From the NCBI RefSeq assembly GCF_024502345.1, contig NZ_JALDNN010000001.1: a stretch of 64,000 nt of DNA; one strand, 5' to 3'. The notes under the pieces are model-generated. The model searched no databases, was not told the origin of the DNA, and saw only the letters and a list, made by a program, of their open reading frames with translations. How positions within the stretch are numbered: position 1 is the stretch's first letter; each line of letters opens with the position of its first letter. Of the stretch, positions 769-19,621 are shown in pieces. Position numbers and translations under genes: made by a program. Source of the stretch: Escherichia coli (GTDB lineage Bacteria; Pseudomonadota; Gammaproteobacteria; Enterobacterales; Enterobacteriaceae).

Positions 769-3308
<2,540 letters not shown>

Positions 3309-15568: not shown

Positions 15569-15782
15569 CGCGCACCTCGTGGCTGATTATGGACGGCGTT
15601 ATTGGCAAAGTGGAACAAGACTCACTCCCGGGTCAGCAAACTCGAAAAATTGACGCTGCCATTATTTGTGCTTTCGTTTTTTTCTATCCGCCAATAAACC
15701 CGTTTTTTTGTTGCTATTTAGCGCCTTTGTCTTATTGACTTACTGGTAGGCTTTGCTACCAGAAATTATCCAGGAGACGAAA
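15569..15782. promoter_or_regulatory. Divergent fliF / fliE promoter region (class 2, FlhDC-dependent, by established knowledge of the flagellar regulon)
   Basis: Intergenic region between divergently oriented fliF and fliE; individual sites not mapped here. Confidence 0.5.
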
Positions 15783-16097
15783 ATGTCAGCGATACAGGGG
15801 ATTGAAGGGGTTATCAGCCAGTTACAGGCTACGGCGATGAGTGCGCGTGCGCAGGATTCACTGCCGCAACCGACCATTAGTTTTGCCGGGCAGCTGCACG
15901 CCGCGCTCGATCGCATTAGCGATACACAAACAGCTGCCCGCACGCAGGCAGAAAAATTCACCCTCGGTGAACCCGGCGTGGCGTTAAACGATGTGATGAC
16001 CGATATGCAAAAAGCCTCAGTTTCTATGCAAATGGGGATTCAGGTGCGTAATAAGCTGGTGGCGGCGTATCAGGAAGTGATGTCCATGCAGGTGTAG
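15783..16097 (+). CDS. fliE: Flagellar hook-basal body protein FliE
   Basis: [16 protein letters not shown]... about 104 aa; ORF-track start is 10 codons upstream. Confidence 0.85.
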
Positions 16098-16299
16098 GTT
16101 TTGTAACCTGTTGTTAATTACTTCCAATCTCACCGCTTGGGGCATGGATGGGGCAAACTCACTCAATTTCTGGTTTAAAATGGATACCTGATCCTGAAAG
16201 TTTTCTGCCATCCACGATCCGTAAACGCGATAACATGTTTTGTCGGTGATGCTGCCAACTTACTGATTTAGTGTATGATGGTGTTTTTGAGGTGCTCCA

Positions 16300-16575
16300 G
16301 TGGCTTCTGTTTCTATCAGCTGTCCCTCCTGTTCAGCTACTGACGGGGTGGTGCGTAACGGCAAAAGCACCGCCGGACATCAGCGCTATCTCTGCTCTCA
16401 CTGCCGTAAAACATGGCAACTGCAGTTCACTTACACCGCTTCTCAACCCGGTACGCACCAGAAAATCATTGATATGGCCATGAATGGCGTTGGATGCCGG
16501 GCAACCGCCCGCATTATGGGCGTTGGCCTCAACACGATTTTCCGCCATTTAAAAAACTCAGGCCGCAGTCGGTAA
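16300..16575 (+). CDS. insA: IS1 InsA (transposition inhibitor / N-terminal part of transposase)
   Basis: 91-aa [46 protein letters not shown]... Confidence 0.9.
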
Positions 16576-16997
16576 CCTCGCGCATACAGCCGGGCAGTGA
16601 CGTCATCGTCTGCGCGGAAATGGACGAACAGTGGGGATACGTCGGGGCTAAATCGCGCCAGCGCTGGCTGTTTTACGCGTATGACAGGCTCCGGAAGACG
16701 GTTGTTGCGCACGTATTCGGTGAACGCACTATGGCGACGCTGGGGCGTCTTATGAGCCTGCTGTCACCCTTTGACGTGGTGATATGGATGACGGATGGCT
16801 GGCCGCTGTATGAATCCCGCCTGAAGGGAAAGCTGCACGTAATCAGCAAGCGATATACGCAGCGAATTGAGCGGCATAACCTGAATCTGAGGCAGCACCT
16901 GGCACGGCTGGGACGGAAGTCGCTGTCGTTCTCAAAATCGGTGGAGCTGCATGACAAAGTCATCGGGCATTATCTGAACATAAAACACTATCAATAA
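16494..16997 (+). CDS. insB: IS1 InsB frame (expressed as the InsAB' fusion)
   Basis: 167-aa ORF in the -1 frame relative to insA, inside IS1. Confidence 0.9.
16551..16557 (+). promoter_or_regulatory. IS1 programmed -1 ribosomal frameshift motif (AAAAAAC) generating the InsAB' transposase
   Basis: A6C heptamer at the insA/insB overlap. Confidence 0.75.
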
Positions 16998-17352
16998 GTT
17001 GGAGTCATTACCTTGCGTAAGATAGATGAGACAAACTGAGACGCATAATGGTTTGCAAGGCTCTAATACTTTGATGTTGAGGATGTGATGGGGCATGTAC
17101 GGGGCATAGTACAATGATGTCCATGCTGGTGTAGATAATCTCCAGGCTTATCCGGTGCGCCGTAAAACCCCGTCCTTCAGGGCAGGGATATAAGGCGTGG
17201 TTTTCCACCTAACCAGGTGTTTGCTGTTGTTCAATGTATTGGCGGATGACGGATATTGGCGCACCTCCGCAGCTACTGGCAAAATAGCCAGCACTCCACA
17301 AAACGCCTTTGTAGTAATACCTGACTGCAATATCTGGTCGATCTCGTCGCAG

Positions 17353-17640
17353 TCACCTACCCGATACGCCTTTGAGGCTGTTTACCAGACTGGATATCGC
17401 CAGTTTGGGAGGATAGTTAATTAACAAATGGACGTGATCTGGTTCGCCATCCATTTCAACCAGTTCAGCTTCAAAATCAGCACATACATTTGAAAAGTAA
17501 GTGCGTAGTTTTTCTGTCGCGTCATGGTCAAAAATCTGACGTCGGTATCTGGTGACAAAGACCAGGTGAACATGCATCAGGAAAACACAATGCCTTCCAC
17601 GCCGGATATCGGTTTCTTTTTTCACAGACCAAAGTATCAT
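17353..17640 (-). pseudogene. tnpA: IS200/IS605-family transposase TnpA, C-terminally truncated (HuH motif present, catalytic Tyr region missing)
   Basis: 95-aa ORF with the HuH motif HVHLL; IS200-type TnpA normally continues for about 50 more residues including the catalytic tyrosine. Confidence 0.6.
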
Positions 17641-17647
17641 TTGGCCT

Positions 17648-18856
17648 GTGAAACGACTACAAGCATTTAAATTCCAGTTAAGACCCGGTGGTCAACAGGA
17701 GCGTGAAATGAGGCGCTTCGCAGGCGCATGTCGTTTCGTTTTCAATCGTGCTCTGGCACGTCAGAATGAGAATCATGAGGCCGGTAATAAATACATCCCT
17801 TACGGGAAAATGGCTTCCTGGCTGGTTGAGTGGAAAAATGCCACTGAAACGCAATGGCTTAAAGATGCCCCGTCACAGCCATTGCAACAGTCACTGAAAG
17901 ACCTTGAGCGGGCTTACAAAAACTTCTTCCAGAATCGGGCTGCTTTTCCCCGATTCAAAAAGCGGGGACAGAATGATGTATTCCGCTACCCGCAGGGCGT
18001 TAAGCTCGATCAGGAAAACAGCCGTATTTTTCTGCCGAAACTGGGCTGGATGCGCTACCGGAACAGCCGTCAGGTCACGGGTGTTGTGAAAAATGTCACT
18101 GTCAGCCAGTCCTGCGGTAAGTGGTACATCAGTATTCAGACAGAAAGTGAAGTATCAACTCCGGTTCACCCTTCAGCATCAATGGTCGGGCTGGATGCTG
18201 GCGTGGCTAAACTCGCCACGCTGTCAGATGGCACAGTCTTTGAGCCTGTAAACAGTTTTCAGAAAAACCAGAAGAAGCTGGCGAGACTTCAGCGACAGTT
18301 AAGCCGCAAGGTCAAATTCAGCAACAACTGGCAGAAGCAGAAACGCAAAATACAGCGACTGCATTCCTGTATCGCAAATATCCGCAGGGACTACCTTCAC
18401 AAAGTCACAACGACCGTCAGCAAAAACCACGCAATGATAGTCATTGAGGATTTGAAGGTCAGCAACATGTCAAAGTCAGCAGCGGGTACGGTCAGCCAGC
18501 CGGGGCGCAATGTCCGGGCAAAATCAGGTTTAAACCGTTCGATACTGGATCAGGGCTGGTATGAAATGCGCCGCCAGCTTGAGTACAAGCAGCTCTGGCG
18601 TGGCGGTCAGGTGCTTGCTGTTCCGCCAGCGTACACAAGCCAGCGTTGCGCGTGCTGTGGTCATACAGCGAAAGAAAACCGCCTGTCACAAAGTAAATTC
18701 AGATGCCAGGTATGTGGATATACAGCGAACGCCGATGTAAATGGCGCTCGTAACATTTTAGCGGCGGGGCACGCCGTTCTTGCCTGTGGAGAGATGGTGC
18801 AGTCAGGCCGCCCGTTGAAGCAGGAACCCACCGAAATGATTCAGGCGACAGCCTGA
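17648..18856 (+). CDS. tnpB: IS200/IS605-family TnpB (OrfB): RuvC-like nuclease with C-terminal zinc finger, RNA-guided nuclease family
   Basis: 402-aa ORF; RuvC motifs (GLDAGV..., IVIEDLKV) and CxxC...CxxC zinc finger (CACCGH...CQVCGY); divergent from tnpA. Confidence 0.85.
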
Positions 18857-18895
18857 ACGTAGCAGGGATCCTCGTCCTTCAGGGCGTGGAGGATG

Positions 18896-19621
18896 TCAAC
18901 AAACAGGTTGAATTAACTCCGCGCCCTGGTTTTTGACATTACCTACCGCGCGCGATACCGGGTGCCAGGTGAACTGGTTTGCTGGCACACAGCCGTTGGT
19001 AGCAATTTCTGATGCTTCTTTACCGCCAATCTCTTGCCGCATCCATTCCTGTGCAGCTTCTGGCGACAGAACCAGCGGGCGGCGGTCATGAATGTCTACC
19101 AGACCCTGGTCTGCTGCAGCAGTGACAATTAAAAATCCTTCGGCTTCGTCACCACGCTCAAATGGTGTGCTACCTATCGCGGCCATAAAAATAGGTTGTC
19201 CATCAGCACGATAGATAAAAAAAGGCTGTTTTTTGTCGCCTTCTTTTTTCCACTCAAACCAGCCATCGGCAAAACAGATTGCCCGACCATGTTGCCAGAG
19301 CGGTTTAAACATGCGACTGGTTGCGGCAGTTTCTACGCGGGCGTTAATCAGCGGCGGTTTATCCCACCATCCGGGAGCATATCCCCAGAAAACCGGATCC
19401 AGATGAAGGTGTTCATCACGTTCACTGAGCAGAAGAACTTTGGTTCCCGGCGCGACGTTGTATCTGCCAATGGGTTCGGGATCGTAGGGAATATCGCGTT
19501 CAATATCTTCCGCGAGAAGCGCAAGGTAATCTTCACGCGAGGGAATATCGCGTTCAATATCTTCCGCGAGAAGCGCAAGGTAATCTTCACGCGTTTGGGA
19601 TTGGGCAAAGCGTCCACACAT
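18896..19621 (-). CDS. yedK: SOS-response-associated peptidase YedK (abasic-site crosslinking, SRAP family), carrying an in-frame 18-aa tandem duplication
   Basis: MCGRFAQS... with N-terminal catalytic Cys2; REDYLALLAEDIERDIP unit present twice. Confidence 0.85.
   Translation of the reverse strand: MCGRFAQSQTREDYLALLAEDIERDIPSREDYLALLAEDIERDIPYDPEPIGRYNVAPGTKVLLLSERDEHLHLDPVFWGYAPGWWDKPPLINARVETAATSRMFKPLWQHGRAICFADGWFEWKKEGDKKQPFFIYRADGQPIFMAAIGSTPFERGDEAEGFLIVTAAADQGLVDIHDRRPLVLSPEAAQEWMRQEIGGKEASEIATNGCVPANQFTWHPVSRAVGNVKNQGAELIQPVC
19497..19604. repeat. Perfect 54-bp tandem duplication (2 copies) inside yedK
   Basis: AGGGAATATCGCGTTCAATATCTTCCGCGAGAAGCGCAAGGTAATCTTCACGCG occurs twice head-to-tail (19497-19550 and 19551-19604). 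Confidence 0.9.

Follow-up and report, generated by a model that had tools for sequence, protein, structure and literature searches.

How did the interval between fliE and yedK in this Escherichia coli strain come to hold an IS1 lacking a target-site duplication, beside an IS200/IS605-family element with a defective transposase gene and an intact tnpB? The window analysed was the whole stretch of 64,000 nucleotides (assembly GCF_024502345.1, contig NZ_JALDNN010000001.1), and the features of the interval are listed in Table 1. Two known E. coli mobile elements, IS1 and IS609, lie side by side here, an ordinary content that is already annotated. With a probability of about 85%, the interval is explained by two independent and well-understood mobile-element histories, an old insertion of IS609 and a later deletion associated with IS1. 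The insertion of IS609 at yedK is older than the IS1 event and independent of it.

Table 1. Features of the fliE-yedK interval, with positions in the window
Feature	Position	Strand	Details
fliE	15784..16098	+	left anchor gene; ORF list
Ancestral DNA 3' of fliE, up to the IS1 left junction	16099-16244 (146 bp)
IS1 (IS1A-like), intact, 768 bp	16245..17012	+	integrity checks, deletion end points, flanks
insA	16300-16575	+	91 aa
insB' frame	16494-16997	+	within IS1
Ancestral intergenic DNA, IS1 to IS609	17013..17151 (139 bp)	.	last four bases TTAT (17148-17151)
IS609 (IS200/IS605 family), 1748 bp	17152..18899	+	left end CCGGTGCG, right end GGATGTCAA
Left-end subterminal hairpin	17168..17187	+	CCCCGTCC-TTCA-GGGCAGGG; variable-site table of copies
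tnpA pseudogene, 143 codons in frame	17209..17640	-	TTA>TGA at codon 96 (17353-17355)
tnpB (insQ-type), 402 aa, intact	17648..18856	+	Pfam, structure alignment, residue positions
Predicted omega RNA scaffold, about 147 nt	18753..18899	+	overlaps tnpB 3' end and right end, includes right-end hairpin
Right-end hairpin	18870-18889	+	A>T stem mismatch, element position 1721
yedK, SOS-response-associated peptidase, 241 aa here	18896..19621	-	ORF list, site comparison
Predicted guide segment	18900..18919	+	CAAACAGGTTGAATTAACTC; DNA directly 3' of right end, antisense to last yedK codons

IS1 elements are about 768 bp long, carry imperfect inverted repeats of about 23 bp, and are flanked by a duplication of 8-9 bp when they arise by simple insertion. 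The copy in the window was complete, as the sequence-only reading had stated: besides full length and an insA of the expected frame, its terminal inverted repeats agreed in 18 of 23 bases, an A6C motif for -1 frameshifting (TTAAAAAAC) started at 16549, and the simulated InsAB' fusion was 232 aa long. The flanking 9-mers were also unlike, as had been claimed, with tgttttgtc on the left and ttgcgtaag on the right and no target-site duplication; the same check on control IS1 copies recovered 9-bp duplications, CTACTTTCA in PSS-08-1 and CGGATATCG in 720632. The missing duplication concerns the history of this IS1 copy and leaves its identity untouched.

Comparison with the same locus in related genomes allowed the deletion to be reconstructed. 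The window was collinear with three loci (L001, L002 and L003) up to 16244, with an identity of 98.5-99.8%. Alignment with CX21, which has no IS1 here, placed the two IS1 ends at 3197/3198 and 6000/6001 of the CX21 locus, and therefore exactly 2803 bp were substituted by IS1, with end points defined to the single base. The segment missing in the window comprised emrE, ybcL, ybcM, and a porin remnant, and the deleted genes were present in Nissle, CX21, PSS-08-1, ECCHD184, and 720632. Judged from these alignments, the IS1 marks an IS1-associated deletion, and it is this deletion that accounts for the absent target duplication. The exact substitution bears out the earlier proposal of an IS1-mediated adjacent deletion or inter-IS recombination. 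The proposal that the usual fliE-yedK content had been replaced was right for IS1 (2803 bp) but not for IS609, which is a simple insertion and replaces nothing. IS1 is a major cause of deletions of this kind in E. coli mutation-accumulation lines (PMC5009759). Like IS1 adjacent deletions and deletions by IS1-IS1 recombination, the present one shows a single intact IS1, unmatched 9-mers, and a few kilobases replaced next to IS1; compared with this frequent class, only the positions of its end points are specific, the left one lying 146 bp beyond fliE and the right one 139 bp short of IS609.

An IS1 was found in the fliE-yedK interval of 17 complete genomes. Among those sampled, PSS-08-1 showed simple insertions, whereas ECCHD184 had undergone an IS1-mediated inversion and 720632 a larger rearrangement. 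The ECCHD184 inversion bears inverted copies of one 9-mer, GTACGGGGC and GCCCCGTAC. Several matches (H11-H16 and H19) were considered as sharers of the right junction and rejected: by BLAST coordinates the IS1 copies of ECCHD184 and 720632 lie elsewhere, the insertion in 720632 being 480 bp away and the arrangement in ECCHD184 being the inversion. The best-matching genomes were 99.2-99.9% identical to the window yet different in structure. In none of 5426 complete E. coli genomes was either IS1 junction contiguous, the high-coverage matches all falling into two separate pieces, and a scan of species-representative genomes for both junctions found nothing. This absence would agree with an assembly artefact in which IS1 was collapsed into a gap and the 2.8-kb deletion is unreal, since short-read assemblies typically break or are wrongly joined at IS copies. 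Such an artefact is nonetheless very improbable, since the identical left junction occurred in an independent metagenome contig (OGWT01001207.1) whose flank was 99.9% identical over 7.3 kb, and the window flanks ran base-perfect into the full-length IS1 ends on both sides.

The later IS1 event would have removed the 2803 bp with emrE, ybcL, ybcM, and the porin remnant, halting 139 bp before IS609. It could have been the classic adjacent deletion, made in one step by intramolecular transposition, or the outcome of a second IS1 inserting nearby in direct orientation and then recombining with the first copy. Either route would leave one intact IS1 with unrelated flanks, and because the products are the same, the choice of route is a sub-question inside the best explanation. 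The two-step route, in which homologous recombination with the nearby copy explains the absent duplication, comes somewhat short of an even chance. Of the IS-associated deletions in E. coli mutation-accumulation lines, 73.5% were classed as involving one pre-existing and one new nearby copy, and IS1A showed local hopping (PMC5009759), which favours this route, as does the presence of two IS1 copies within the same interval in both ECCHD184 and 720632. However, a direct-repeat IS1 pair at both window junctions was found in none of the sampled genomes, and the ECCHD184 inversion with its inverted 9-mers points to intramolecular IS1 transposition at work in the interval. The original insertion site of IS1 could be either junction, both being absent from the 5426 complete genomes.

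The neighbouring element was identified as IS609 by 97.8-98.5% nucleotide identity over 1748 bp to copies annotated under that name, that is, those whose tnpA is annotated as "IS200/IS605-like element IS609 family transposase". Its boundaries were defined by comparing the filled site with the empty site in Nissle. In the IS609-free Nissle (locus L004), the DNA corresponding to 17013-17151 is continuous with yedK and reads GGCTTAT followed directly by CAAACAGG, which showed that IS609 sits 3' of TTAT within the yedK stop codon and has no target duplication. The comparison also showed no terminal inverted repeats, as is proper to the IS200/IS605 family. Identical 1748-bp boundaries and a TTAT left flank were found at six of the loci read (yedK, ydcL-ydcO, ytfA, a DUF3251 gene, yhgE-hslO, and the plasmid pUTAK-13-1). 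The element had been described as ending at 18895; the real end is 4 bp further, and yedK takes its stop codon from the final bases of IS609. The last yedK codon (Cys) and the TGA stop (18896-18898) are made by the IS609 right end, and yedK measured 669 bp in the IS609-free Nissle versus 672 bp in genomes with the insertion. The left-end junction of IS609 at the yedK site was present in 1096 of the 5426 complete E. coli genomes. IS609 at yedK is therefore no peculiar local arrangement, the site being occupied in about a fifth of E. coli genomes. The element would have inserted 3' of TTAT in the yedK stop codon, giving yedK one extra Cys codon and a new TGA stop, and would then have become fixed in a large E. 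coli lineage. In addition, yedK carries a perfect 54-bp in-frame tandem duplication (19486-19593), which was absent among the matches listed, the best 12 each aligning as two overlapping pieces that span 227 bp against a query of 281 bp.

The yedK copy closely resembles the IS609 copies of K-12 (tnpA pseudogene/insQ, between ydcL and ydcO) and of O157:H7 ("ytfA" locus, a disrupted TetR/AcrR-family regulator gene beside ytfB), sharing with both the length of 1748 bp, the ends, and about 98% identity. All three have divergent tnpA and tnpB, lie 3' of TTAT with no duplication, and encode a tnpB of 402 aa. What sets the yedK copy apart is its position in the chromosome, at the yedK stop codon, which also gives it a different predicted guide; both hairpin stems, moreover, bear substitutions particular to the yedK-locus copies (element positions 33 and 1721). 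IS608 of Helicobacter pylori is the reference element of single-strand "peel and paste" transposition. Its transposase is of the Y1 HUH type, its imperfect hairpins are subterminal, its left end targets the tetranucleotide TTAC, its right end is cleaved at TCAA, and its tnpA and tnpB share one orientation. IS609 is like IS608 in its Y1 HUH TnpA, its subterminal hairpins, its left tetranucleotide target, and the TCAA at its right end, but its target is TTAT rather than TTAC and its tnpA and tnpB are divergent.

The transposase gene had been thought to be cut short, but no DNA is lost, and 143 codons run in frame with one TGA at codon 96. As encoded, the protein stops after 95 aa. The stop falls between the HUH motif (HVHLL) and the C-terminal catalytic-tyrosine region (RQYIEQQ; GGAPISVIRQYIEQQ), which had been taken as absent but is still encoded. 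With Leu96 restored, the protein matched Pfam Y1_Tnp over positions 1-121 of 121 (E = 2e-41). Re-examination of the frames and the family match thus yielded a full-length frame, but one interrupted by TGA, and the gene is still inactive. Codon 96 was TGA in the K-12 ydcL-ydcO copy as well as in each of the six copies read at the yedK locus, and TTA at the ytfA, yfaY, and DUF3251 loci, O157 carrying the intact TTA allele. Read-through or recoding of the TGA was considered and rejected, no feature supporting it and NCBI treating the codon as an internal stop; in sister genomes NCBI annotates tnpA as a pseudogene with "internal stop". One TTA>TGA nonsense mutation has inactivated the Y1 transposase gene, and the copy is therefore non-autonomous. 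Values of dN/dS for tnpA rested on 1-7 substitutions per pair, too few to interpret.

Single-strand DNA folds of the IS609 ends were indistinguishable from shuffled sequence (z-scores -0.3 to -1.9), and the terminal hairpins were therefore defined by comparison of copies, not by energy. The left-end and right-end hairpins have a common core, CGTCCTTCAGGGC. By analogy with IS608, the left hairpin is a putative recognition structure for TnpA; relative to the O157 copy with its intact tnpA, its stem is disrupted by a G>A change at element position 33, common to the yedK-locus copies. The stem mismatches in both hairpins of the yedK copy might weaken recognition by TnpA and perhaps also disturb the RNA scaffold. 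The description of the element as immobile is supported by the inactive tnpA and the stem mismatches, but it is too strong. The copy is non-autonomous rather than strictly immobile, and TnpA supplied in trans could in principle move it, because both ends and the TTAT and TCAA cleavage motifs are kept. The K-12 IS609, which has the same tnpA nonsense codon, made zero transpositions in 520 mutation-accumulation lines (PMC5009759).

The description of tnpB as an intact gene of 402 aa with RuvC motifs and a zinc finger was confirmed. Pfam identified the domains OrfB_IS605 (PF01385), Cas12f1-like TNB (PF07282), and HTH_OrfB_IS605 (PF12323); the RuvC residues are D183, E267, and D363, and the zinc finger is formed by C334, C337, C353, and C356. 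Residues 3-376 aligned to the structure of ISDra2 TnpB (8bf8, E = 7e-55) with the D-E-D triad aligned, and the RuvC D/E/D residues and the CxxC...CxxC zinc finger are shared with the ISDra2 TnpB/omega RNA structures (8bf8, 8exa, 8h1j). TldR proteins are domesticated, nuclease-dead TnpB transcription factors that have lost the RuvC catalytic residues and the transposon ends; the gene here is not of this type, its catalytic triad being intact and both transposon ends present. TnpB is an RNA-guided nuclease (PMC8612924), and the IS609 TnpB was one of nine purified orthologues (PMC12781874). From the sequence, we infer that the TnpB of this copy may be expressed and active as a nuclease.

The target-adjacent motif of ISDra2 is TTGAT, and in IS609 the predicted counterpart is TTAT. 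As in ISDra2, the right-end flanking DNA is expected to provide the guide, and the transposon target motif to double as the target-adjacent motif (PMC8612924). The tnpB gene, its catalytic residues, the right end, and the structured putative guide-RNA region are all still intact. The 11 aligned right ends came from Escherichia, Salmonella, Klebsiella, and Proteus; half were near-identical, and much of the region also codes for protein. In their consensus structure of 45 pairs, 95% were paired versus about 40% with slid partners, with compensatory changes in 4. This covariation lends modest support to the predicted guide RNA. The single-sequence fold of the scaffold had a z-score of -3.25, and all Rfam matches were sub-threshold (HgcC, 19.3 bits; RAGATH-18, 25.4 bits), a weak pointer only. 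Likeness among the 11 right ends stopped exactly after ...GTCAA, the element boundary, and a conserved structured 3' region ending at the right end is consistent with a guide RNA. In Nissle, the 20 nt CAAACAGGTTGAATTAACTC stand directly after TTAT and form a perfect motif-plus-target site, whereas no predicted target site with the correct TTAT motif was found within the window; the element's own locus would escape cutting by TnpB because the insertion parts the target from its TTAT motif. If expressed, TnpB and its guide RNA would cut wherever CAAACAGGTTGAATTAACTC follows TTAT, as it does in the IS-free yedK allele and at the excision joint, and such cutting would bias retention of IS609.

Across loci, tnpB is open at several fixed sites while tnpA decays differently at each. 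An open tnpB beside a decayed tnpA fits the published view of TnpB in transposon retention, in which TnpB cuts the excision joint (PMC10055086). The whole copy, tnpB included, may instead be a decaying fossil whose tnpB is open only for lack of time, a reading we consider unlikely; it is equally doubtful that the guide RNA and nuclease activity are no longer relevant. The fossil reading draws on the dead tnpA, on the stem mismatch in both terminal hairpins that is specific to yedK-locus copies, and on the inertness of IS609 in K-12 mutation-accumulation lines (PMC5009759). A consensus promoter scan found nothing promoter-like on the tnpB strand, which would agree with decay, although the scan was uninformative, its 2 opposite-strand matches equalling the shuffle expectation (2.0). 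In MB20, moreover, the yedK-locus tnpB is already a pseudogene (Q208* and a 1-bp deletion), and maintenance of tnpB is therefore not universal. Against decay, five of the six yedK-locus copies and the copies read at all other loci have an open tnpB although they diverge by 1.3-2.7% in nucleotides, the dN/dS of tnpB between loci was 0.20-0.38, and within the yedK locus the window differed from 720632 by 5 synonymous versus 2 non-synonymous codons. All catalytic and zinc-binding residues of TnpB are kept; tnpA, in contrast, bears independent lesions across loci (L96*, Y76*, and a lost stop codon). Selection of the tnpB/guide-RNA module at yedK, and of the K-12 insQ, as a self-preserving "allele guard" after the death of tnpA is a speculative possibility to which we give only slight credence. 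If it were true, incoming or recombinant empty yedK alleles would be cut and the occupied allele favoured in inter-strain recombination, and antisense transcription running convergently into the 3' end of yedK could modulate this SOS-associated gene. On the same reading, a variant with dead tnpA and live tnpB would have spread, by trans mobilisation or gene conversion, giving the codon-96 TGA shared by two loci.

For the strain, the IS1-associated deletion meant loss of its emrE-ybcL-ybcM copy at fliE-yedK, and the IS609 insertion left YedK with one additional C-terminal Cys derived from the transposon, as compared with the IS609-free form. The significance of the locus lies mainly in annotation, namely the corrected status of tnpA, the boundaries of IS609, its target motif, and the predicted guide. 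The corrected TTAT motif and the predicted guide make a direct test of native E. coli TnpB activity possible.

The gene order of the window, taken from the ORF list and from annotated relatives, was fliG and fliF (minus strand), fliE, the IS1/IS609 region, yedK, yedF, yedE, yedD, and amyA, and the sequence was of E. coli type. IS609 is the IS200/IS605 element of this region.

Coordinates of the features between fliE and yedK
Feature	Position	Strand	Size or domains	Source
fliE	15784-16098	+		ORF list
IS1	16245-17012		exactly 768 bp	
IS609	17152-18899		1748 bp	empty versus filled site comparison
tnpB	17648-18856	+	402 aa; HTH_OrfB_IS605, OrfB_IS605, Cas12f1-like TNB domains	
yedK	18896-19621	-		ORF list

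Only one IS1 copy was present in the window. Its terminal repeats, GGTGATGCTGCCAACTTACTGAT and GGTAATGACTCCAACTTATTGAT, matched at 18 of 23 positions, and its coding sequence contained a 91-aa insA and the frameshift motif TTAAAAAAC at 16549, with a simulated -1 slip giving an InsAB' of 232 aa. The 9-mers bordering the element were unlike (tgttttgtc and ttgcgtaag). The IS1 copies of the relatives PSS-08-1, 720632, and ECCHD184 served as the positive control for this inspection: perfect 9-bp duplications were found in PSS-08-1 (CTACTTTCA) and 720632 (CGGATATCG), and ECCHD184 carried the inverted 9-mer pair GTACGGGGC/GCCCCGTAC, typical of IS1 intramolecular inversion. The ends, the frames, and the unlike 9-mers, with duplications visible in the controls, bore out the sequence-only reading of a complete 768-bp IS1 without target duplication.

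That reading had also proposed an IS1-mediated adjacent deletion or inter-IS recombination, to be checked at the same locus in relatives, and this comparison supported an IS1-associated deletion. In the alignment to CX21 (L002), which has no IS1 at the locus, window 15600-16244 corresponded to L002 2553-3197 and window 17013-19539 to L002 6001-8526, and from these end points IS1 substitutes for exactly L002 3198-6000, a segment of 2803 bp. The replaced segment contained emrE, ybcL, ybcM, and a remnant of about 750 bp of an ompC-like porin gene, which is whole in Nissle. Because Nissle, CX21, PSS-08-1, ECCHD184, and 720632 all have the emrE-ybcL-ybcM segment genes in the fliE-yedK interval, loss of the segment in the window lineage is the parsimonious reading. 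An identical product would result from intramolecular transposition in one step and from a local hop whose direct copies then recombine, and either window junction could be the original insertion site of IS1, the two being indistinguishable in this respect. Among the elements that form deletions in mutation-accumulation lines of E. coli, IS1A is one of the two principal ones, and most deletions paired an old copy with a nearby copy inferred to be new (PMC5009759).

IS1 was found in the fliE-yedK interval of 17 complete genomes, and the events among the genomes read were a simple insertion in PSS-08-1, an inversion in ECCHD184, and a larger rearrangement in 720632. Across 5426 complete E. coli genomes, no contiguous instance of either IS1 junction of the window was found, and the species-representative genome set lacked both. 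The exact fliE-flank/IS1 junction was present in an independent metagenome assembly, contig OGWT01001207.1, in which 7.3 kb of flank are 99.9% identical (7 mismatches in 7284 bp) before the contig stops 53 bp inside IS1. Since it is absent from the searched genome sets yet its left junction occurs in this contig, the IS1 allele of the window is real and rare, and a deletion-bearing lineage therefore exists beyond the source genome. In ECCHD184 (L003 3524-5768), a segment within the same interval as the window deletion was inverted between two opposite IS1 copies, with GTACGGGGC and its reverse complement at the outer junctions, a textbook case of intramolecular inversion by IS1. In the IS1-rich strain 720632 (L018 955-2032), rcsA and emrE were both truncated and directly joined by an inverted IS1; the fliE-side flagellar genes next to this locus have therefore been lost or moved in a large rearrangement.

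Similarity between the window and IS609 copies at other loci was confined to about 17148-18895, and window 17013-17152 was joined directly to yedK in IS609-free strains such as Nissle. Comparison of the empty site, GGCTTAT|CAAACAGGTTGAATT, with the filled site, GGCTTAT[CCGGTGCG...GGAGGATGTCAA]CAAACAGG, therefore set the boundaries of IS609, placing its end 4 bp beyond the 18895 first proposed. The insertion lies 3' of TTAT (17148-17151) and is free of target duplication; TCAA forms the end of the element. Identical boundaries and the TTAT left flank were read at six loci: yedK, ydcL-ydcO (K-12), ytfA (O157:H7, CAVP761), a DUF3251 gene (Z142-2), yhgE-hslO, and plasmid pUTAK-13-1; the yhgE-hslO copy, from an ST131-type strain, was internally deleted. 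At a seventh locus, yfaY-yfaV of strain 042, the copy was read at its right end, which was the same. Between IS1 and IS609, 139 bp of ancestral DNA (17013-17151) were retained. IS609 replaced no ancestral sequence, contrary to the earlier claim, and IS1 alone displaced the usual fliE-yedK content. Because the left-end junction at the yedK site occurred in 1096 of the 5426 complete genomes, the IS609 insertion is old and earlier than the IS1 event. Public annotation already covers both elements as well as the site of insertion and the pseudogene status.

IS609 sits inside the yedK stop codon (18896-18902). The 3' end of yedK reads ...CCT GTT TGA in Nissle and ...CCT GTT TGT TGA in the window, where the right end of IS609 (TCAA, read on the other strand) provides the final T and the TGA stop; YedK therefore gains one C-terminal Cys, which agrees with a yedK of 672 bp in insertion-bearing genomes, against 669 bp in Nissle. 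Separately, yedK held a perfect 54-bp in-frame tandem duplication at 19486-19593 (minus strand), so that 18 aa (REDYLALLAEDIERDIP-S/Y) occur twice close to the YedK N-terminus and the protein reaches 241 aa; the duplication was absent from the best 12 E. coli matches listed, each of which aligned as two overlapping pieces (227 bp for the 281-bp query).

Minus-strand translation of tnpA from 17640 gave 95 codons, a TGA, 47 more in-frame codons (LRRDRPDIAVRYYYKGVLWSAGYFASSCGGAPISVIRQYIEQQQTPG), and the normal stop. The O157:H7 copy, whose annotation is that of an intact IS609 transposase of 143 aa, has TTA (Leu) at this codon, and the window TnpA with Leu restored matched Pfam Y1_Tnp over positions 1-121 of 121 (E = 2e-41). 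Given the in-frame codons past the TGA and the end-to-end match, the tnpA sequence reads as a full-length nonsense pseudogene and not, as had been supposed, a gene truncated after the HuH motif; the suggested alignment to full-length family members revealed no loss of DNA. The tyrosine-region DNA is kept, and the absence of that region holds for the 95-aa product as encoded. NCBI annotation of sister genomes also records an internal stop in tnpA. The TGA was found in all six yedK-locus copies read (window, CX21, PSS-08-1, ECCHD184, 720632, and the more divergent MB20), and the same change, TTA>TGA at codon 96 (17353-17355), in the K-12 ydcL-ydcO copy (L005), whose sequence over the rest of the element is no particularly near match to that of the window copy. 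Codon 96 was TTA in copies at three other loci. Other lesions were also seen: the tnpA stop codon was lost in 042, K-12, PSS-08-1, Z142-2, CAVP761, and MB20, and Z142-2 in addition carried Y76*. Variable sites among IS609 copies were mosaic, and the TGA common to two loci could reflect either trans-mobilisation of a copy that was already dead or gene conversion.

The tnpB gene was intact, as first read, with its RuvC motifs and zinc finger. Residues 3-376 of TnpB aligned to the ISDra2 TnpB structure 8bf8 (E = 7e-55), with which it shares the catalytic positions D183, E267, and D363; C334/C337/C353/C356 were also conserved. Between copies at different loci, the dN/dS of tnpB was 0.20-0.38, and within the yedK locus the window and 720632 differed at 5 synonymous and 2 non-synonymous codons. 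TnpB may be expressed and active. At the same insertion site in MB20 (L019), tnpB was a pseudogene (Q208*, together with 1 bp deleted close to the 3' end), and tnpB is therefore not kept in every lineage. In strain 4/1-1 (L011 1501-2958, yhgE-hslO), an IS609 derivative kept about 50 nt of left end, lost most of tnpA to an internal deletion, and retained an intact 402-aa tnpB, a naturally occurring tnpB-only form; the same partial match recurred among ST131-type genomes.

In a right-end alignment of 11 sequences (E. coli chromosomes and Salmonella, Klebsiella, Proteus, and E. coli plasmids; 79-98% identity), similarity ceased exactly after ...GGATGTCAA, as would be expected if the bases that follow serve as a guide particular to each locus. 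Folded as a consensus, the stretch from about 18753 to 18899 formed 45 pairs, with 95% of cells paired versus about 40% with the partners slid, and 4 pairs showed compensatory changes; the single-sequence fold z-score was -3.25. The covariation gives modest support to the predicted guide RNA, given that part of the region is coding and that half of the sequences are near-identical. HgcC-type RNAs overlap the 3' ends of IS605-type orfB in archaea, and a sub-threshold Rfam HgcC (RF00062) match at 18793-18912 (+), spanning the right end and the 3' end of tnpB, is a lead only, at 19.3 bits where the gathering score is 50.

Taken together, the sequence-only reading correctly spotted an IS1-associated deletion and a tnpA-dead, tnpB-live IS200/IS605 element, but not the nature of the tnpA lesion, the role of IS609 in the replacement, or its end coordinate. 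Compared with the O157 copy, those at the yedK locus carried G>A at element position 33 (left-end hairpin stem) and A>T at position 1721 (right-end hairpin stem; a U:U pair in the RNA model), changes that may be signs of decay in the IS609 ends and might block their recognition by TnpA. The K-12 copy did not move in 520 mutation-accumulation lines (PMC5009759). The known mechanism of TnpB (PMC8612924; PMC10055086) predicts as target TTAT with CAAACAGGTTGAATTAACTC after it, exactly the empty yedK site of Nissle. The sole near match within the window was the right-end junction of IS609, with TCAA instead of TTAT, so this locus would not be cut: lacking the target-adjacent TTAT there, the TnpB-guide complex would spare its own yedK locus.
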